From NCBI GenBank assembly GCA_963700985.1, contig OY969554.1, positions 384,001 through 448,000 of the forward strand: a stretch of 64,000 nucleotides of DNA. The letters run 5' to 3'. Origin of the DNA: an uncultured Chlamydiales bacterium (GTDB lineage Bacteria; Chlamydiota; Chlamydiia; Chlamydiales; Rhabdochlamydiaceae). This document shows positions 2,851 to 9,469 of this stretch, piece by piece (the stretch's first letter is position 1; each line of letters opens with the position of its first letter). The notes below the pieces were generated by a model. That model did no database searches, was not told the origin of the DNA, and saw nothing but the letters and a program-made list of their open reading frames with translations. The position numbers were made by a program, and so were the translations under genes.

Positions 2851-4161
2851 TTACTTGATGCCTAAACGCTTGAAAATTTTATTGAAGTCTTCTTCTAGTT
2901 TTACACCAGTTGGACTAGGTGTAGTTTTTGCAATCATGAGATCGAAAAGTTCATCGAACTGCTTATCAGCATCAGCAGTTTTAGGTCTTCCTTTTTTAAT
3001 CTGGTCTAACAATGTATGCATTTTAGCTGTGGAATCAGCATCCATGCCCATTTTTATAGCGAAGCCATTGATGACTTCTGGTGTGAACTCAGAAGCATTT
3101 TCTTGAATAGATTGTATAAAATTACCTCGGCATCCCGAGCTTCCAAAGCTAGGACTTCCTACCCATCTTAAAGCCCCATCACTATTTCTCATTTTGTGTA
3201 GAGCATCTCTAATTGGCTTTGAACCGAGGATCATTTCAAAATGCTTGAGAGGATGTGCTTTCCTATCTGAATTGGGATCTTTTAGATATCTTTCTGTGGC
3301 CATAAAGTTGCTTTTATAACCTACTAACCAAACAATCCCAGTGTCCGCAGTTTTTATGAGCATAGATGTGATTAGCCTTTTGACATCTTCCTGCATTGGG
3401 GCAAGAGCATCGTAGGCGGCTTTTGCAGTCACAGTTGCCACAGCTAATTCAGCTGCAGCCGGTGCTACGAGAGCAGGGGCTGCTTGCTGGGCTTCAGTTA
3501 CGAGTGGTGCAGCGGGAGCAGCAACGAGGGTTTCGATTTTAATAGCCACAGGAGCAGGATTAATTTGGACTGGAGGAGGAGTCGGAGCGACCTCATTTGA
3601 TCCCCACATTTTCTTGCAGAACATATTTGTTAAAAACCCCACACCAACAGCAGCAGCACCGACCACGAGAAGGGGAGCGCCGATTAGTGATGCAGTAGCA
3701 CCAGCCACAGCGCCAGTTGCAACAGTGAACATGCCGTGAGAGCATGATGGCTCAATTGGGGCTTCAGATGAGGCTTGTGCTGGAGTTTCTAATTCAGTTT
3801 CATTCGCTTCAATCAGTTCTAGCCCTAACTTTTCTGGCTGAGGTGCTTGTTTCGCTTGTTCTTGATCCAATTCTAGATTCTTAATGTGGCTATTTAATTG
3901 TGTGTATTCTTTGACAAGTCGTTCAGCTTGTGATCTTTTGTAGAAGCGCATAAAAGCATAGCAAAAGCTATTCCAGGCATTTGTGACTTTTGACCAGAGA
4001 GATTTGGTGATAATTACGTCTTTTTTCTCATTAATTAAAGACGGGTCGATTTGACAGATTTCCCTCTTTAAATAATTGAGGTGAAGCTTTTTGCTTTCAA
4101 GAGTAAACCCACTGGTTGCTGTAACAGGTGTGGTAGAGGCAGGAATTGATCTTGTTGCCAT
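2851..4161 (-). CDS. Hypothetical protein, candidate secreted effector/Inc-like
   Basis: 436 aa; S/T/P-rich N-terminus, central hydrophobic hairpin, Ala/Pro-rich linker, AT-rich upstream region. Confidence 0.6.
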   Translation of the reverse strand: MATRSIPASTTPVTATSGFTLESKKLHLNYLKREICQIDPSLINEKKDVIITKSLWSKVTNAWNSFCYAFMRFYKRSQAERLVKEYTQLNSHIKNLELDQEQAKQAPQPEKLGLELIEANETELETPAQASSEAPIEPSCSHGMFTVATGAVAGATASLIGAPLLVVGAAAVGVGFLTNMFCKKMWGSNEVAPTPPPVQINPAPVAIKIETLVAAPAAPLVTEAQQAAPALVAPAAAELAVATVTAKAAYDALAPMQEDVKRLITSMLIKTADTGIVWLVGYKSNFMATERYLKDPNSDRKAHPLKHFEMILGSKPIRDALHKMRNSDGALRWVGSPSFGSSGCRGNFIQSIQENASEFTPEVINGFAIKMGMDADSTAKMHTLLDQIKKGRPKTADADKQFDELFDLMIAKTTPSPTGVKLEEDFNKIFKRLGIK

Positions 4162-4349: not shown

Positions 4350-6290
4350 CTAGGATTTTGTGTGGAAAATAGGAAGCTCGAAGACCCCATTACTTTCGAT
4401 GTCTTTAGCGATATTCCAATACTCGTGCAGGGCGTTTTTAGGAATGTGATCTTGCAGGTGTTTTAGTTCAAAATGAAAATCGGCTTGATGGCGCTTTATC
4501 TTAAGCCCATGCCTAAAAAAGATCGATTCATGTTCGTAGATCTGCTTCTCGGATTCATTCCCCCAAGAATAGAGGGAATTATCAACATGAATGTGCTCTT
4601 TAACCCATAGAGGGTAAGAGAGAGCAAAAGGGGAGCTTCTTTCAGGGTTAATCCGGCTTTGAAGGTAGTTTTCCACAGTCGCCGAGGCAATTTCCAGTGT
4701 ATTACCTTCTTTCTGTTGTCTAGTGGGGATGTGATAAGATTCAGAGATAGAAATGATGTTCTCATCGCGAAGATCTTCAATCTCCATGGGAGCAAGGGCG
4801 TATCCGCCTCCATAACGCTCTTGCAAGTCATTTAAGCGATCTTTCGCGATTTCATCTAATCCTTCATTTTCAAGATACCCGCGAAGCATATCGGCTCTGA
4901 ATCCATAATAGGTTCGCGTCATGCGCAATTCTACGGATTGAGCTGAGCGCACCGAAAAGTAGGTTTCAAATTCAGAAGGTTTTTCAATTTGATGCTCTGG
5001 AAGTGTGATGAGCTCAGGGCGCTCTTTTGAGAGCAGCAGGCCGGTGTAGTAGTTAGGGAAATAGTTGTTCTGCAAAGTGCCGCCTTGCAAGCTCATGGTC
5101 GCATCTGCCCAAAAAGGAGTGCCCTCGATTTCTATCTGGATGACCGCGTGGTTGAAAGCAAAGGGTGTAGGGATCTCCTCAGAGAGCAGCTTGCCGCGGT
5201 GTGAATGAACCAGGAGGGGCGAGGAGTCGATTTGCATTAAATGCAGAAGGGCGCGAAGGAGCTGTGTTTTGTCTTTACAGTCGCCAAAGCGTTTCTTGAA
5301 GACCTCGCGGGGGTCATGTGGCCTAAATCCATTTACGCCATCTTCAAGTCCTAAATACCTAACTTCATCTTGCACGAAACGAAGTGCCAGCAGCGCGCGC
5401 TGCATGGGGTCATTTGTAGATTCTTTCCACTCATTGATTAATTCCAGCATCTGCTGGGGATAATCTTCATTAGCGATGGCGGAAAGATCAAAGAGAGGGA
5501 TGAGTTTTTCTGCGACTTCGCGCCAGGTTTGAAACTGACTTAAGTGTACGCGAGCAAGAGGAGAGTACCAAGCTGGTCTATCCGTTTCATAAATATAGAC
5601 AGGGGTTTGGCTGACTTCCCAAGACCACTCGCGTAAATCAGAAGAAAGATCGTTGATTTTAGGCGTAAGTGTTGTGTTGATGGCTTGAATCACAAAGGGG
5701 TGATCGGGATGGCTGAGAAAACGGTAAGAAAGCTTTTCGATCGATGCTGTATGTTGAAGAAAAAAACTATCAGAATAATGAGAGGAAAAGAGAGGGTTTT
5801 CCCCAATTTTTGAATAGGCGTAATCGACAATGTCTCCTACGCGAATGTCGTCTAGGATATAAACCAGTGAAAGATCGCCGCTAAAAATTCCTTGATCGAG
5901 ACCTTCTTCTTTTTGAATTAGATGGTGCTGCGAGCTGTATATCCGTTCCGACCACTCTCCATCGCGAAAGATGCGGATGTCGTGTAAGATGAGTTTCTGA
6001 AACGAGGGCTCAAAGCTGATACTCAATTGAGAAATTCCCTCAACGCCACTTTTAGTCAGCGCCTTGAACACAAAATGGTTGTAAACAGTTTGTTCTGGCC
6101 AATTTCTCTGCTCATCTATTAGGAGGCACTGCACATTTTCTTGAGATGGAAGCACTTCAAGCGGGAAGTCTGAAGGTCTAACCCAAGCAGGTGCAGGCGC
6201 TATGCAGAAGTTGTCACATCCAACTTCTTTTTGAGTGGCTGTTAAAAGAAGCGCTGGAAAGCAGATAAGAAAAAAGAAACGGCGAAGCAT
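4350..6290 (-). CDS. DUF3857 + transglutaminase-like domain protein
   Basis: Signal peptide; DIRVGDIVDYAYS; FVQDEVRYLG; GDCKDK, FNHA, DAT (Cys-His-Asp triad). Confidence 0.85.
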   Translation of the reverse strand: MLRRFFFLICFPALLLTATQKEVGCDNFCIAPAPAWVRPSDFPLEVLPSQENVQCLLIDEQRNWPEQTVYNHFVFKALTKSGVEGISQLSISFEPSFQKLILHDIRIFRDGEWSERIYSSQHHLIQKEEGLDQGIFSGDLSLVYILDDIRVGDIVDYAYSKIGENPLFSSHYSDSFFLQHTASIEKLSYRFLSHPDHPFVIQAINTTLTPKINDLSSDLREWSWEVSQTPVYIYETDRPAWYSPLARVHLSQFQTWREVAEKLIPLFDLSAIANEDYPQQMLELINEWKESTNDPMQRALLALRFVQDEVRYLGLEDGVNGFRPHDPREVFKKRFGDCKDKTQLLRALLHLMQIDSSPLLVHSHRGKLLSEEIPTPFAFNHAVIQIEIEGTPFWADATMSLQGGTLQNNYFPNYYTGLLLSKERPELITLPEHQIEKPSEFETYFSVRSAQSVELRMTRTYYGFRADMLRGYLENEGLDEIAKDRLNDLQERYGGGYALAPMEIEDLRDENIISISESYHIPTRQQKEGNTLEIASATVENYLQSRINPERSSPFALSYPLWVKEHIHVDNSLYSWGNESEKQIYEHESIFFRHGLKIKRHQADFHFELKHLQDHIPKNALHEYWNIAKDIESNGVFELPIFHTKS

Positions 6291-6434
6291 ATTTTCCTGA
6301 ACGTTACAAAATGTTCAAAAAAGCATAACCACACGCCACTTATTTCTCACAAAAAAATGCTGGACAGCAAGAGATTCTGCCAATAGGATGCTTGATCCAT
6401 AAAAAAGTATTGCAAAAAGAATTAGGGCCAAATT

Positions 6435-8492
6435 ATGAAATTCTACATCGCGTTTATTCTTATTTTATGCACAAAGGTCGGTTCCATTTTTGGTGTTGAT
6501 CTAGAATGTCCCCATGGTTGTAAGGGAAAATCGATTAGAAGGGTTGGCGGGCTTTTTGATGATCTTCTGTATGATATAAAATCTACAGCTTTTAAGGACT
6601 ACTTTAATGGTTTAGCTTTTAGTGTTGAAGATTACGCTTTAATTATCCACGTGCGCAGGCCAAAATTTGGTTTGGCTTATGATTTGAAATGGCCTCGCAT
6701 TTACAAACCAGGATTTTGTTGGGATACCGAGGTTTGGTCAGATTCTTACGATCCTAAATATGATAGATGGGGTTTAATCAAAAAATATGATTCTGAAAGC
6801 AATACTTGGGAGGTTTCCTGGGATATTTGCAGAACTTGTTTTGACAATTCCAGCCCGATACAAAATCCAGAGTTGTCGAAATCCGGACCATCGTTTTTTA
6901 CATCCAGCCGTTATTCCAGCTTTGATGCTGCACTCTCCTTGCTCAAAAAAGATCTCGATATTTGTTTTGCTTCCCATTTTGATTTTTTTAAGCGAGCACA
7001 AGAGAAATGTAATAGCGAAATCGAGAGAGTAAGAACGATAATTGAAGAACGAGGAGACCGTTATGTAGATAGCGATTATACGATTTTATATCGTTCCGAT
7101 AGAATTAAAGCTTTTTCTAAAAACATCTCAGACATCGTTAAAGTTTCTCATCTGTTAGATAATCAACATATAAAAGTGGATGCACTCATTGCTAATGCTC
7201 AAATTTCTGCAAGAGCGATCTATTCTGAAATTTATGACGAGTGCATTAAAAATCACCAGGCTCTTAGCGCATTTTATGAGAGAGGACTTTTATGTTTTGA
7301 TGAAGGAAATTTTTATCAATCCTTAGAAAATATCCTAGCGCTGATTGAGAAGGCAAAAGGGGGTGAGAAAGAAACTTCAATCCCCATAGATGCTTATTTC
7401 TACAAAGGCTCTGCGGAATCTGAGCTCGGATTGTATCATGATGCCATTCAATCATTAAGCTACGCCATTGAGAAGAATCCGAAAAACCAGGATGTATATT
7501 TAGAAAGAGCGATCGCTTATTTCGAAGATGGGCAAATGGAATCTTCGCTTAATGATTATTTGCAATCAGGTCTAAAAAGCACGCCACTCCAAGAAGTACT
7601 TAACTCAGAAGGAGCTGACAGTCGTCTTGAATATGCTACAGGGCTTATACAAGCCGGAATGTTCTTGGGTGGAATAGAGGGCGGGGTAGAGGGCTTAATC
7701 GAGATTATACCTTCTCTTCTTCATTCAGCATCTGGTTTAGCAAATGGGCTCTATGCGCTTGCCTTAAATCCCATGCAGGTTTCTGTAGAATTTATCTCTA
7801 GCTGTAAAGAGTGCGTCAACTGTCTTAGGGAAAACCCTGAACTGTTAAAAGAATGCATTCTTGAAGTAAAGGAGTTAGTGGATAACTTTGATAAAACTAG
7901 TGAGTTCCAGAAGGGAGAGCTCATGGGTAAAATCATTGGTAAGTATGGTGTTAATGCATTTGCTGCGGCTAAGATCGCTAAAGCTGGTAAAGCTTATCTT
8001 GATTTGAAACGTGCAAATACTCTTCTTACTTTTGAAGCCTTCAATAAGGCGCCTCCTGAAAAAGCCACGGCTCTTGCACAAGCCTCCCAGAAATGGCGCA
8101 ATCAGCATCTAAAGACTATCGAAGAATTTAAAGCTGGCAAGGAGATGATAAAACCTTTTCAGGGAAAATATTTGGATGAGACCGCTGCTCGAAAAGTTCT
8201 ACATCAGGCTGGGTTTAAGACTTTTCCTCGTTTTAAGGGGTTACCGGAAAATTATCGGGTTAAGCTATCGGGCAAGGGGGGTGGTATGAAGTACGTACAC
8301 CCTAATGATGAGGGAACATATATAAGAGTAATGCCCGGAACTTCGCATAGCCCACATCCCTGTCAACAAAAACCCTATGTAAATCGCCGGATTAATGGAC
8401 AATCTATTGATAAATTTGGCAAAGTTGTAGCCCATGATTCACCCGAAGCGCATATACCCTTAGAGGAATTCACCTTCATAACTGAACCATAA
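6435..8492 (+). CDS. Signal peptide + TPR protein with putative C-terminal polymorphic toxin (nuclease-like) domain
   Basis: TPR helices (AFYERGLLCFDEGNFYQS; AYFYKGSAESELGLYHDAI; VYLERAIAYFEDG), Gly/Ala-rich helical segment, basic tip with IRVMPG...QQKPYV...PEAHIP. Confidence 0.7.
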   Translation: MKFYIAFILILCTKVGSIFGVDLECPHGCKGKSIRRVGGLFDDLLYDIKSTAFKDYFNGLAFSVEDYALIIHVRRPKFGLAYDLKWPRIYKPGFCWDTEVWSDSYDPKYDRWGLIKKYDSESNTWEVSWDICRTCFDNSSPIQNPELSKSGPSFFTSSRYSSFDAALSLLKKDLDICFASHFDFFKRAQEKCNSEIERVRTIIEERGDRYVDSDYTILYRSDRIKAFSKNISDIVKVSHLLDNQHIKVDALIANAQISARAIYSEIYDECIKNHQALSAFYERGLLCFDEGNFYQSLENILALIEKAKGGEKETSIPIDAYFYKGSAESELGLYHDAIQSLSYAIEKNPKNQDVYLERAIAYFEDGQMESSLNDYLQSGLKSTPLQEVLNSEGADSRLEYATGLIQAGMFLGGIEGGVEGLIEIIPSLLHSASGLANGLYALALNPMQVSVEFISSCKECVNCLRENPELLKECILEVKELVDNFDKTSEFQKGELMGKIIGKYGVNAFAAAKIAKAGKAYLDLKRANTLLTFEAFNKAPPEKATALAQASQKWRNQHLKTIEEFKAGKEMIKPFQGKYLDETAARKVLHQAGFKTFPRFKGLPENYRVKLSGKGGGMKYVHPNDEGTYIRVMPGTSHSPHPCQQKPYVNRRINGQSIDKFGKVVAHDSPEAHIPLEEFTFITEP

Positions 8493-8861
8493 ATGAATAC
8501 AAAAAACACTCAAGTTAAAAAGCAAATCCTTGAAGGCTTTTTAAAGAACATTCTTATTTTATCTGATCAGGAATATCAAAGAAGAGTATGGATCGAAGGG
8601 CGTGGTCCTGAAATCCATAGTTTCGATGAAGCTGTTTGTGATTTCTTTGATTTAGGGGAGTATATCTTTGCTCACCCTCAAAGCTATGGCCTTACAGATG
8701 CACAATTCAGGTTGCTCACAAAGTTTCGAGAGCGATTTATAATTTTTGCAGATGATAACGACTTTCCTGAAAAATTTATAGATACATCAGGATGGGAGGA
8801 GATTATACAAATGGCAAAGGAAATCTTAAAATCTTTCAAATATCAAAAGAATTGTACGTAA
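8493..8861 (+). CDS. Putative cognate immunity protein
   Basis: Starts directly after the toxin stop (TAAATG); small, acidic core; LSDQEYQRRVWI..SFDE..CDFFD and W..I...A motifs. Confidence 0.7.
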   Translation: MNTKNTQVKKQILEGFLKNILILSDQEYQRRVWIEGRGPEIHSFDEAVCDFFDLGEYIFAHPQSYGLTDAQFRLLTKFRERFIIFADDNDFPEKFIDTSGWEEIIQMAKEILKSFKYQKNCT

Positions 8862-8912
8862 AATACACCAAGCTATCTTTCGGTGCTGAAAGGTTTGGGG
8901 TGAAACAAGAGA

Positions 8913-9265
8913 ATGATGACTAAAATGCAGTGGATTAAACTCATTTAAGATTGTATTTCAGAGATTGCCGATCCAGATTTTCAAGAACGAGCATGGATAA
9001 AGGGCGACGTTAATGAATATTGTTGCTTTGATGAGACCATGTCCAGGTTATTTAATAATGCAGATTTAAGCGATTTTCTCGATAATTATGTGGTTAAGTT
9101 CAATCTTTCTGCTGGGCTAAAGACGAGTATAGGAAAAAACGGACGTATTATCTTGATATAGAAATCGTCAATGACTCTGAGTGGCACACAATTCAAAAGC
9201 TTGCCCAATCCGCACTTGATGCATTTAAAGACTTTAACTTTTCTGAAGAACCAGGGCCAGTTTGA
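8913..9265 (+). pseudogene. Orphan immunity homolog, pseudogenised
   Basis: Manual translation MMTKMQWIKLI*DCISEIADPDFQERAWIKG...CFDETMSRLF, frameshift near 9120, then IVNDSEWHTIQKLAQSALDAFK; aligns with 8493..8861. Confidence 0.75.
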
Positions 9266-9469
9266 AGCTTCTAATCTGATTTTTTGAATCTGAGCGATTT
9301 GTTAAGCGCGTTTTCAGGAAGAGAAATTGATAGGTGGCTTTTACCTTTTGAGTCTGCGAAGTCTTTATAATTCCTTAAAAAAACTTTTGAGATAAAAACA
9401 TTCTTAGGACTACCATTCGCGCATGCAAAAAAATTTGCAAATCGACATCAATTACAAAAGGAAAATGTT

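Follow-up and report, generated by a model that had tools for sequence, protein, structure and literature searches.

Is the gene at positions 6435..8492 (+ strand), which encodes a protein of 685 aa, the toxin gene of a polymorphic toxin/immunity system, and if so, against whom would its product be directed? Chlamydiae are obligate intracellular bacteria and their usual theme is the manipulation of the host, not inter-bacterial warfare. An earlier note, made from the sequence alone, had interpreted the locus as such a system, with a toxin tip on a TPR carrier, an adjoining immunity gene and a decayed homolog of that gene further downstream. We analysed the locus within the window, that is, the whole stretch of 64,000 nucleotides from an uncultured Chlamydiales bacterium. 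The coordinates of the features are collected in Table 1.

Table 1. Features of the locus, with positions in the window and residues of the 685-aa protein.
Feature	Position	Strand	Remarks
Putative Sec-type signal peptide, residues 1-21	6435..6497	+	Hydrophobic leader, then conserved ECPxGC motif; read from sequence
N-terminal region, residues 22-230	6498..7124	+	Conservation limited to close relatives
TPR region of the carrier, residues 231-390	7125..7604	+	Pfam TPR models; conserved alignment block
Gly/Ala-rich helical segment, residues 391-545	7605..8069	+	Best-conserved carrier part; ends at the junction LDLK.AN.LLTFE
Putative toxin tail, residues 546-685 and stop codon	8070..8492	+	Two predicted helices, then PT7-like core
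PT7-like core of the tail, residues 596-676	8220-8462	+	Profile match and predicted structure
Putative cognate immunity gene, 122 aa	8493..8861	+	Acidic, all-helical, without signal peptide; adjoins the toxin gene as TAAATG
Decayed second immunity gene, different subtype	8913..9265	+	In-frame TAA at 8946-8948, one frameshift

A carrier with exchangeable tails

Regarding the carrier part of the protein, the leader reaches a Kyte-Doolittle mean of 2.06 in a 19-residue window, and the layout of leader plus ECPxGC motif is alike in the homologs P0004-P0006, where C25, G28 and C29 are invariant. The N-terminal region that follows can be aligned with P0004 and P0005 and partly with P0006, and the Pfam scan gave no family match for it. 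The TPR_1 model matched residues 319-351 above its cut-off (4e-07, 30 bits), TPR_16, TPR_2, TPR_17 and TPR_11 matched within residues 319-384, and an extra TPR was seen further upstream in P0004, which is 47% identical to the 685-aa protein. The Gly/Ala-rich segment has a G+A fraction of 0.21 versus 0.14 for the whole protein, a mild hydrophobicity and no Pfam family match; a language-model look-up placed it near clusters bearing MafB, PT-TG and EndoU (scores 0.83-0.86), which we take as a lead only. The TPRs were the only Pfam families found in the protein, the rows for DUF677, DUF6950 and Peptidase_M6 being far under the cut-off, and the scan revealed no Rhs/YD, FHA, LXG, PAAR or HINT module. 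The C-terminal 140 residues have a basic pI of 9.65. Thus, the earlier note had described the protein well: its length, Sec-type leader, Gly/Ala-rich helical segment and basic C-terminal tip, as well as the lack of the five modules, agree with our results, and its count of about 3 TPRs is fair, considering those at residues 319-384 together with the upstream one of P0004.

At the nucleotide level, the stretch 6001-9500 has a G+C of 0.36-0.42, which is below that of its flanks (0.45-0.49). A promoter and terminator scan of positions 6000-9600 was uninformative, with 11 promoter-like signals versus 8.8 expected and 4 terminator-like signals versus 2.9 expected.

The homologs of the protein diverge in their tails past the junction, and the carrier HMM stops at residues 545-548 in all loci. 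Three full-length homologs already illustrate this: the first shares the tail, the second ends in a short, unrelated one and the third in a Pfam Ntox50 domain (2.9e-24). Leaving our own locus aside, the 29 best carrier loci comprised 12 with the tail studied here, 16 with an Ntox50-type tail and 1 with another type, and 20 further carrier loci added LHH/Col-Pyo DNase, DUF6883 and weak Ntox35-like tails. One carrier is therefore found with at least six tail classes, namely this tail, Ntox50, LHH/Col-Pyo DNase, DUF6883, an Ntox35-like class (below the cut-off) and an unnamed one, and the PT7-like tail is a common tip of the carrier family, not a rare one. Tail replacement at one fixed locus was not demonstrable, as the genes that neighbour the locus here (for a DUF3857 protein and GatB) are not found beside the carrier genes in two genomes of the same genus (G112 and G031). 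The carrier model matched in 183 of 400 Chlamydiota genomes, often several times per genome, a count to be read as an upper bound, since the model includes TPRs and may thereby pick up unrelated TPR proteins with weak E-values. Most of these matches in the phylum begin at model positions ~170-290.

The tail is also reused by other carriers. The TPR carrier was present in 90 of the best 150 tail representatives, and a second leader-bearing carrier was found among the remaining 60; moreover, it stands behind a TIGR03696 Rhs core (9.3e-12) in P0134 and behind a PT-TG pre-toxin domain (9.8e-09) in P0203.

In public records the homologs are named only 'tetratricopeptide repeat protein' or 'hypothetical protein'. 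Such names, and the fact that Pfam finds TPRs alone, would suit an ordinary TPR protein of the periplasm or envelope whose C-terminal domain is conserved and whose small neighbour is unrelated, in which case no toxin system would exist. We find this hardly credible, because homologous carriers end in Ntox50 and LHH/Col-Pyo DNase toxin domains, the same tail stands after an Rhs core and after PT-TG, the tail resembles a validated toxin and the neighbouring gene switches with the tail, as described in the following sections.

The tail domain and its relation to PT7

A profile search with the tail matched 810 representatives at E<=1e-3, and in nearly all of the best 150 of these 810 the match lies at or near the C-terminus. 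In an alignment of 35 members (36-58% identity) R631 is invariant and Y620, S639, Q644, Y648 and H673 are near-invariant. The AF2 model of the tail has a pLDDT of 95.7, and a structure search with it (VIA) gave PDB 8OWU, the toxin PT7, with a Z of 8.3, the next match having 4.0. The superposition with 8OWU aligned 73 of 76 residues with an rmsd of 2.5 A and 27% identity, and Foldseek gave the same entry with probability 1.0, a target TM of 0.70 and an E of 4.4e-3. Regarding the sequence level, the tail profile reached 8OWU in the PDB with a marginal E of 2.4e-4 (24.2 bits, 63 profile positions), whereas the tail as a single sequence did not match 8OWU and retrieved designed beta-trefoils by chance only. 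According to these models, PT7 is the one clear structural relative of the tail, a divergent one with the same fold.

The tip had been thought in the earlier note to resemble the His/Arg-dependent RNase tips of Rhs-type toxins. Our searches did not bear this out: the only clear relative is the PT7 nuclease, and no structure of the BECR fold appeared among the listed VIA matches, where all but 8OWU had Z<=4.0, or among the listed Foldseek matches. We also considered a kinship between the tail and Ntox50, which is counted among the BECR-fold RNases together with barnase, EndoU, colicin E5-D and RelE and with which the tail has the H-I-(V)-P ending in common; this was ruled out by hhalign, which gave a probability of 0.2% against the Ntox50 tails.

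PT7 is reported to kill E. coli and yeast and to be neutralised by PIM7, and mutation of D37 or H47 abolished its toxicity (Nachmias et al., bioRxiv 10.1101/2021.10.19.465003). The same preprint reports Mg-dependent DNA degradation in vitro by PT7 point mutants, and a later article reports that the wild-type toxin degrades plasmid DNA and total RNA (PMC13675652); PT7, whose fold is distinct, is described as a DNase with an additional action on rRNA (bioRxiv 10.1101/2021.10.19.465003; PMC13675652). As a divergent relative of this validated nuclease toxin, the tail most likely kills by cutting nucleic acid, and we infer a nuclease activity for it.

Nevertheless, the chemistry may differ from that of PT7 and the tail may fall outside the PT7 family proper, since the residues mutated there, D37 and H47, are apparently not conserved in the tail. 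In the HMMER alignment to 8OWU, D37 stands opposite the near-invariant Met of R-V-M-P-G and H47 opposite a variable or Gln position, a placement that assumes that chain index and PT7 numbering differ by 17 and that comes from aligning sequences, not structures. The tail could then be an inactivated domain that has retained the fold and the immunity partner and lost cleavage, serving as a binding or recognition module, e.g. in kin recognition. This seems quite improbable to us, because the tail has a (near-)invariant polar set of its own (R, H, Y, Y, S, Q) across the 35 members, an immunity gene is retained beside it in 79 of 80 loci, and the predicted immunity interface covers exactly these conserved polar residues. 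Such a pattern is typical of an enzyme that is active but whose catalytic site differs somewhat.

The downstream genes

The stop codon of the toxin gene (TAA, 8490-8492) is followed without a gap by the ATG at 8493. The 122-aa product encoded there has a pI of 5.20, and its AF2 model is an all-helical bundle with a pLDDT of 93.6. A Foldseek search of this fold against the PDB retrieved only generic helical bundles, the best with an E of 1.2 and none at E<=1e-3. The profile of 26 immunity homologs had nothing under E 0.02 in the PDB and no 8OWU chain among its matches; thus, the protein is unrelated to PIM7. All 26 aligned homologs match NCBIfam NF047838 (SCO4402_fam) at E<=0.01 over nearly the full length, the best at 2.2e-09. 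The 122-aa protein itself matches with residues 18-114 on profile positions 12-117 of 119 (E 2.3e-06), its score of 27.8 bits lying, like every homolog score seen, below the family cut-off of 50 bits. SCO4402 is not mentioned in the literature searched, so the family name carries no function.

Further downstream, the decayed copy reads in one frame from ~8913 to the TAG at 9159-9161, and its C-terminal part continues in another frame to the TGA at 9263-9265. A tblastn search with the 26 immunity homologs gave 48% identity over 67 aa (E 2e-20) as the best match and an E of 1.6e-16 for the two-frame match. Its identity to the intact neighbour is only ~29%. An intact paralog lies elsewhere in the genome (G000:C1:1122840-1123169); it is 52% identical and no toxin gene adjoins it, and the two genes that flank it have no Pfam match.

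The link between tail and downstream gene is seen when loci are compared. All 12 carrier loci with the PT7-like tail have an immunity homolog beside it, and none of the 37 carrier loci with other tails has one; 9 of the 26 sequences of the immunity model come from these 49 loci, so that 9 of the 12 positives match by construction. In a separate set of 80 independent loci from public genomes, none of which was used as a model reference although some database proteins of the model may lie on those contigs, the homolog was found at -60 to +400 bp from the tail in 79, the sole miss having a flank of 70 bp. The Ntox50-type tails have a downstream family of their own (~100 aa), and the other tail classes are also accompanied by other families; Pfam found nothing in the immunity genes of the other tail classes, except TPRs in one. 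Immunity arrays reach 10 copies (L048), four tandem immunity genes are found at two Ntox50-type loci (L024 and L028), orphan tail pieces in L012, L014 and L019, and, in L117, an orphan cassette in which the tail is joined to the end of the carrier. Ntox50 is listed in chlamydiae by Zhang et al. 2012, with no immunity family in its table row (PMC3482391), and the chlamydial Ntox50 tails are now given one.

Finally, the tail was modelled in complex with the product of 8493..8861. The ipSAE was 0.85 (0.86, 0.85 and 0.85 in the three runs), the best of 3 controls being 0.00; the mark of 0.85 is attained by 58 of 80 solved complexes and by 2 of 110 mismatched pairs, counts that are approximate here because we used our own alignments. 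The three runs share at least 96% of contacts, and the pLDDT of the partner is at least 90. On the side of the tail, the predicted interface covers the conserved residues (76, 78, 83-86, 88-89 and 117-118), and on the side of the immunity protein residues 32-46. The models thus support binding of the 122-aa protein to the tail over its conserved face.

These results bear out several proposals of the earlier note. Its small acidic gene directly 3' of the toxin gene has the TAAATG junction and the acidic pI, and its decayed homolog was recovered by three-frame translation and tblastn. Two of the checks that it had suggested also came out in its favour: N-terminal homologs do carry different tips, each with its own small downstream gene, and complex modelling supports binding of the tip by the adjoining gene product.

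Proposed role and comparison with known systems

Four of the features by which Zhang et al. 2012 recognise polymorphic toxins were found here, i.e. exchangeable tails, a tail-specific downstream gene, orphan cassettes and reuse of the tail by other carriers. Together with the complex model, tail swapping and matched downstream genes favour the interpretation first given in the earlier note. We regard it as strongly supported, by sequence comparison and modelling, that the whole locus represents a polymorphic toxin/immunity module from an uncultured member of Chlamydiota, with a PT7-like tail, presumably a nuclease, and cognate plus orphan immunity (probability of about 0.8).

According to this explanation, the 685-aa carrier, with its leader, variable N-terminal region, TPRs and conserved Gly/Ala-rich helical segment, would be exported by the Sec route. 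Its last ~140 residues would be the exchangeable toxin tail, which most likely cuts nucleic acid in the cytoplasm of the target. The 122-aa helical protein would stay in the cytoplasm and bind the conserved face of the tail, thereby protecting the producer and its kin, and the decayed gene and the 52%-identical paralog may represent orphan immunity against related tails of other strains. Regarding the delivery, no dedicated set of export or injection genes adjoins the toxin gene, no T6SS sheath gene was found in the genome, and its ShlB-type transporter lies ~470 kb from the toxin gene. The targets would presumably be other bacteria in the same host cell, not the host.

Alternatively, the protein could be a nuclease effector secreted into the inclusion or the host cytoplasm, and the adjoining gene would only shield the producing cell until the toxin is exported, in the way that barstar keeps barnase in check. 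PT7 is reported to be toxic to yeast besides bacteria, which leaves room for a host target, many toxin-like domains on TPR, ankyrin or Sel1 proteins of intracellular bacteria are read in this way by Zhang et al. 2012 (PMC3482391), and no interbacterial delivery machinery was found. However, one immunity gene would do for such an effector, and here a decayed second subtype and an intact orphan paralog exist as well; at related loci up to 10 immunity genes form an array and tails occur as orphan cassettes, all of which is typical of inter-strain conflict. Furthermore, host-directed toxins are recognised in Zhang et al. 2012 by having no immunity genes (PMC3482391), whereas this locus carries putative ones. 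We therefore consider a host-directed effector unlikely and prefer the polymorphic toxin/immunity module.

Tails that can be swapped, immunity genes that go with them and arrays with as many as 10 copies are the genomic signature of ongoing strain conflict, which in chlamydiae would have to occur inside host cells. The locus thus suggests that intracellular chlamydiae fight one another, and Zhang et al. 2012 had already remarked on toxin plus immunity pairs in Simkania, an intracellular chlamydia (PMC3482391). More tentatively, and at less than even odds in our opinion, the leader-TPR-Gly/Ala-helix carrier might be an undescribed delivery class, spread over much of Chlamydiota and independent of T5, T6 and T7 systems, that arms attacks on co-resident chlamydiae or other bacteria in the host cell or inclusion by means of tail and immunity families unnamed in domain libraries. 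No paper describing the carrier family appeared in the article texts searched; chlamydial TPR-Ntox50 proteins may have been catalogued earlier, in Additional file 1 of Zhang et al. 2012. In any case, three handles are gained: a carrier whose export or entry route is open to study, an unannotated toxin domain with 810 representatives that is now tied to the solved PT7 nuclease, and an unannotated immunity family tied to the uncharacterised SCO4402 family.

Compared with the Rhs/CdiA systems, the locus is similar in the replacement of tails at a conserved junction, in the cognate immunity and in the orphan tail/immunity cassettes, but the 685-aa protein has no YD/Rhs shell, TPS domain, VENN or DPxGL junction. 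The MafB/MafI systems of Neisseria, like Sec-dependent polymorphic toxins in general, begin with a signal peptide and a conserved carrier, end in a variable toxin and are accompanied by an immunity gene next to the toxin gene and by orphan cassettes. Our locus resembles them in its leader, in a conserved carrier without Rhs, FHA, PAAR or LXG, in the variable toxin end, in the adjoining immunity gene and in the orphan cassettes, although Pfam did not find the MafB (DUF1020) domain in the 685-aa protein, and the language-model scores that tie its helical segment to MafB and PT-TG clusters (0.83-0.85) are a lead only. The class 'T2SS/Sec-dependent' in Table 1 of Zhang et al. 2012 already includes TPR among its repeats (PMC3482391).

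Regarding PT7, the B. cereus toxin is reported (Nachmias et al., bioRxiv 10.1101/2021.10.19.465003) to be joined to an LXG domain, a sign of export by a T7SS in Gram-positives, whereas the chlamydial tail is carried by a leader and TPR protein. The extra pair of N-terminal helices belongs to the chlamydial tail and not to PT7, and the helical 122-aa immunity protein differs in origin from PIM7. Nevertheless, the two toxins share a central-strand Arg as well as the motif G-N-I-V...S-P-(D/E)-A-H-I-P at the C-terminus, and in both an immunity protein lies over the conserved pocket, as solved for PT7/PIM7 and predicted for the chlamydial tail. Both are small C-terminal toxin domains with an immunity gene directly downstream.

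The probable toxin gene and its neighbourhood

The 685-aa protein encoded by the toxin gene opens with a strongly hydrophobic stretch at residues 1-21 (Kyte-Doolittle mean over a 19-residue window up to 2.06), after which comes a Cys motif, ECPxGC, that is invariant in the alignment of homologs. TPRs are the sole Pfam recognition in this protein (residues 319-384, TPR_1 4e-07), residues 391-545 are Gly+Ala-rich (0.21 versus 0.14 for the whole protein) and the last 140 residues are basic, with a pI of 9.65. The stop codon TAA is immediately followed by the ATG of the immunity gene, whose 122-aa product is acidic (pI 5.20) and has no leader. Further downstream lies a second, broken immunity gene, in which an in-frame TAA stands at 8946-8948 and the frame shifts ahead of the C-terminal part. 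In tblastn, the immunity homologs of other genomes match it at 48% identity over 67 aa (E 2e-20) and in a two-frame match at E 1.6e-16, but its identity to the intact neighbour is only about 29%. The leader, the TPRs, the Gly/Ala-rich segment, the basic tip, the abutting acidic gene and the decayed homolog that the earlier note had described are all present. The G+C of 6001-9500 is 0.36-0.42, below that of the flanks (0.45-0.49).

Regarding the other neighbours, the 436-aa protein matched no Pfam or NCBIfam family, and we take its layout to resemble that of chlamydial inclusion-membrane proteins. The divergent neighbour has 52%-identical orthologs in same-genus genomes, located apart from their carrier genes. 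The MORN-repeat protein is rich in Ser at its N-terminus and in Cys at its C-terminal end (…CCCAKYHPLSCDE…CCAQK…CLCCVIL). The genome to which the window belongs (G000) is a single contig (C1) of 2,067,302 bases and is 99% complete.

Coordinates of the module, its neighbours and related features (positions without prefix are those of the window)
Feature	Position	Strand	Basis or remark
436-aa protein	2851..4161	-	extended hydrophobic segment of Gly, Ala and Val (…GMFTVATGAVAGATASLIGAPLLVVGAAAVGVGFLTNMF…); also Ala/Pro-rich repeats
Divergent neighbour of the toxin gene, 646 aa, leader-bearing	4350..6290	-	DUF3857 (4e-31) and weak transglutaminase-like core
Toxin ORF, 685 aa	6435..8492	+	ORF call
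Immunity gene, 122 aa	8493..8861	+	
Broken second immunity gene	~8913-9265	+	tblastn
269-aa protein	9470..10279	+	five MORN repeats, 7.8e-19
ShlB/FhaC-type outer-membrane transporter	G000:C1:863676-864683	+	1.5e-18, 569-aa ORF; ~470 kb from toxin gene
Intact orphan immunity paralog, 116 aa	G000:C1:1122840-1123169 (= L003 1492..1842)	-	52% identity; ~730 kb from toxin
Orphan cassette	L117 3840..4674	+	runs from within the carrier's Gly/Ala helical segment to a second DUF6883-type tail at its end

Tails are exchanged on a conserved carrier and paired with their own downstream gene

A word-based search with the full 685-aa protein returned three homologs. The alignment of the four proteins shows conservation as far as about residue 545, closing with the motif LDLK.AN.LLTFE, and divergence after it: P0004 has the same tail as the 685-aa protein, P0005, whose tail is encoded in the same-genus genome G112, has an unrelated one of 96 residues, and P0006 ends in a full-length Pfam Ntox50 (2.9e-24). 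A relation of the 685-aa protein's tail to the Ntox50 tails was rejected, the profile comparison giving a probability of 0.2%.

The carrier profile made from these four proteins matched 183 of the 400 genomes of the phylum in which it was searched, often 2-6 times each; with TPRs in the profile, 183 is an upper bound. In one family of the phylum the profile matched 0 of 29. The best 150 places all had E <1e-31, nearly all of them spanning part of the helical segment and two of them tail positions only. Among the tails extracted from the 29 best loci (own locus left out), 12 were of this type, 16 of the Ntox50 type and 1 of the P0005 type. Another 20 loci, picked because the profile match stopped at the carrier end, added three more kinds of tail, namely LHH / colicin-pyocin DNase (over the cut-off at 6.8e-08 and 1.4e-06), DUF6883 (9.5e-20) and a group whose similarity to Ntox35 is weak and below the cut-off, as well as divergent Ntox50 tails.

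In the carrier loci with this tail, the next same-strand gene always encodes a homolog of the 122-aa protein and either abuts the toxin gene or overlaps it, with a gap of -14 to +6 bases where the ORF was called. The immunity family, detected with HMMs built here, was found in 12/12 carrier loci with this tail, whereas it was found in 0/37 with other tails, and in none of the 27 loci with Ntox50-type tails; 9 of the 26 sequences in the model were drawn from the carrier loci, so that 9 of the 12 positives were bound to match. A second set consisted of 80 loci fetched from public genomes using the tail alone, none of them in the model as a locus reference, with some of the model's database proteins possibly lying on the same contigs. 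In 79 of these 80 loci the family starts -60 to +400 bases from the tail end, and the one miss has a 70-base flank. One copy was present in 64 loci, two in 8 and three in 4; five, six and ten matches behind one tail were seen once each, in the poly-immunity loci L039, L050 and L048 (Chlamydiales/Chlamydiae records).

The Ntox50-type tails have a downstream family of their own, of about 100 aa, which forms tandem arrays of four in L024 and L028. In L006, L010, L013, L017 and L033 this immunity gene is fused in frame to orphan C-terminal Ntox50 pieces (…IVDFKEKIG…TSWGVIHY…), giving ORFs of 259-289 aa. The table row for Ntox50 in Zhang et al. 2012 (PMC3482391) gives no immunity family. Each of the remaining tail types is followed by a further, different downstream gene. 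N-terminal homologs with different tips, each with a different small downstream gene, which the earlier note had proposed to look for, occur in the 49 carrier loci, and its polymorphic toxin/immunity reading is supported by both the tail swapping and the tail-specific downstream gene.

The orphan cassette of L117 sits about 870 bp behind a full-length gene. This layout is as expected if recombination within the conserved carrier end replaces tails, and the cassette could be a substrate. In L012, L014 and L019, the first immunity gene is followed by orphan pieces of the main tail. In the window's own genome, the intact immunity paralog lies 100 bp behind the gene of a leader-bearing 314-aa protein in which no Pfam family was found; there is no toxin beside the paralog and no second copy of the tail in this genome.

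The tail is also found on other carriers. A HMMER search of 1.84 billion representatives gave 810 matches at E<=1e-3, 378 at <=1e-10 and 51 at <=1e-30. In nearly all of the best 150 of the 810, the match reaches the C-terminal end or stops no more than about 20 residues from it; P0127 is the clearest exception, its match stopping 136 residues short. Ninety of these 150 have the TPR/helical carrier, and the rest include short fragments. A second, leader-bearing carrier of 450-600 aa (P0007, P0011, P0030, P0043, P0045, P0049, P0068 and others) is conserved in a block around …SYDE.L.LL..IE.GELEKRC… and contains a hydrophobic stretch (…K.HK.A.IIGAAI…); no Pfam family was found in the two proteins scanned, P0007 and P0011, and no NCBIfam family in P0007. 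Furthermore, the tail follows a TIGR03696 Rhs-associated core in P0134 (9.3e-12, over the cut-off) and a PT-TG pre-toxin domain in P0203 (9.8e-09). The sources name the tail proteins only 'hypothetical' or 'TPR repeat protein'. Nearly all named records with tail relatives are Chlamydiota MAGs (Parachlamydiales, Rhabdochlamydiaceae, Simkaniaceae, Neptunochlamydia), and a few are labelled as other phyla.

Fold of the tail and its predicted complex with the immunity protein

Across 35 aligned tails, 36-58% identical to that of the window, R631 (full-protein numbering) is invariant and G617, Y620, M633, P634, G635, S639, Q644, P647, Y648, G662, H673 and I674 are near-invariant. The AlphaFold2 model from this alignment (pLDDT 95.7, pTM 0.88) places a pair of helices before a small core rich in beta structure. 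The tail profile had one match among the PDB sequences, 8OWU chain B (E 2.4e-4); 8OWU was also the top Foldseek hit of the model (probability 1.0, target TM 0.70, E 4.4e-3), and in a structural search against 48,161 chains 8OWU_C reached Z 8.3 (rmsd 2.5 A, 73/76 residues, 27% identity), the next chain having Z 4.0. The tail, which the earlier note had likened to RNase tips of Rhs-type toxins, is reassigned to a probable PT7-like nuclease.

8OWU is the Bacillus cereus polymorphic toxin PT7 in complex with its immunity protein PIM7; PT7 was discovered as a new C-terminal toxin domain on LXG, its fold was reported as unlike any known, and it is toxic in E. coli and yeast and neutralised in cells by PIM7 (Nachmias et al., bioRxiv 10.1101/2021.10.19.465003). 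For the mutants D37A and H47A the same preprint describes DNA degradation that is Mg-dependent and EDTA-sensitive, with tRNA not cut, and wild-type PT7 is reported to degrade plasmid DNA and total RNA (PMC13675652, 2026). PT7 and the tail have in common the central Arg and the ending G-N-I-V...S-P-(D/E)-A-H-I-P. However, when PT7 numbering is taken as chain index minus 17, which places the mutant Ala at D37 and His at H47, D37 is aligned with the near-invariant Met of the tail's R-V-M-P-G and H47 with a variable/Gln position. The tail is a divergent branch of the PT7 fold, and because of these two positions its active site may be built differently. It is probably a nuclease, acting on DNA or RNA.

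The predicted fold of the immunity protein is a bundle of helices only (pLDDT 93.6), for which the structural search gave no clear relative, and a profile of 26 homologs gave no sequence relation to PIM7. All 26 aligned homologs match the NCBIfam 'SCO4402 family' below the cut-off (best 2.2e-09), a name of which we found no mention in the literature searched. With a separate alignment for each partner, the complex of tail and immunity protein was predicted at 0.85 (runs 0.86, 0.85 and 0.85), while the best of three controls scored 0.00. In calibration, this mark is reached by 58 of 80 solved complexes and by 2 of 110 mismatched pairs, counts that hold only roughly here as our own alignments were used. 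The runs share at least 96% of the contacts, with partner pLDDT of at least 90. On the tail side the predicted interface comprises residues 76, 78, 83-86, 88-89 and 117-118 of the 130-residue piece, where the conserved Arg, Met, Ser, Gln and His lie, and on the immunity side the loop 32-46 with the invariant Trp33. These models support binding of the immunity protein over the putative active site.

Working model and known systems

We estimate at about 80% the probability that the module is a working toxin/immunity pair. Judging from its leader, the 685-aa protein would be exported by Sec across the inner membrane; by homology, the tail would then cleave nucleic acid in the cytoplasm of the target and the cytoplasmic immunity protein would block cleavage in the producer and its kin. 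The target is somewhat more probably bacterial than not, and other chlamydiae in the same host cell would be the most plausible ones, because immunity genes occur as orphans and arrays, here as a decayed copy of another subtype and the intact paralog. Regarding export, the window's genome has three secretins and the ShlB/FhaC-type transporter and no T6SS sheath gene, and Pfam found no TPS domain in the 685-aa protein. The conserved Gly/Ala-rich helical segment is the most evident candidate for a membrane-active or translocation part; a language-model look-up, whose scores are a lead only, placed it near clusters with MafB, PT-TG and EndoU.

In the literature searched, no paper deals with the carrier family, with how widely it occurs in the phylum, with the main tail's link to PT7 or with the immunity families; supplementary lists, outside this search, may name some of these proteins. 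MafB/MafI is the usual example of Sec-dependent polymorphic toxins, and the window's module works like this class. Zhang et al. 2012 (PMC3482391) count TPR among the repeats of the class, place Ntox50 in chlamydiae and present the URI-nuclease toxin of Simkania, with immunity encoded next to it, as a rare instance of such systems in intracellular bacteria; the sole remark in König et al. 2019 is that Protochlamydia encodes classical polymorphic toxin domains. The module follows the known logic of polymorphic toxin and immunity; its carrier, its branch of the tail and its immunity family are not yet described, and conflict among bacteria has received hardly any attention in this phylum.
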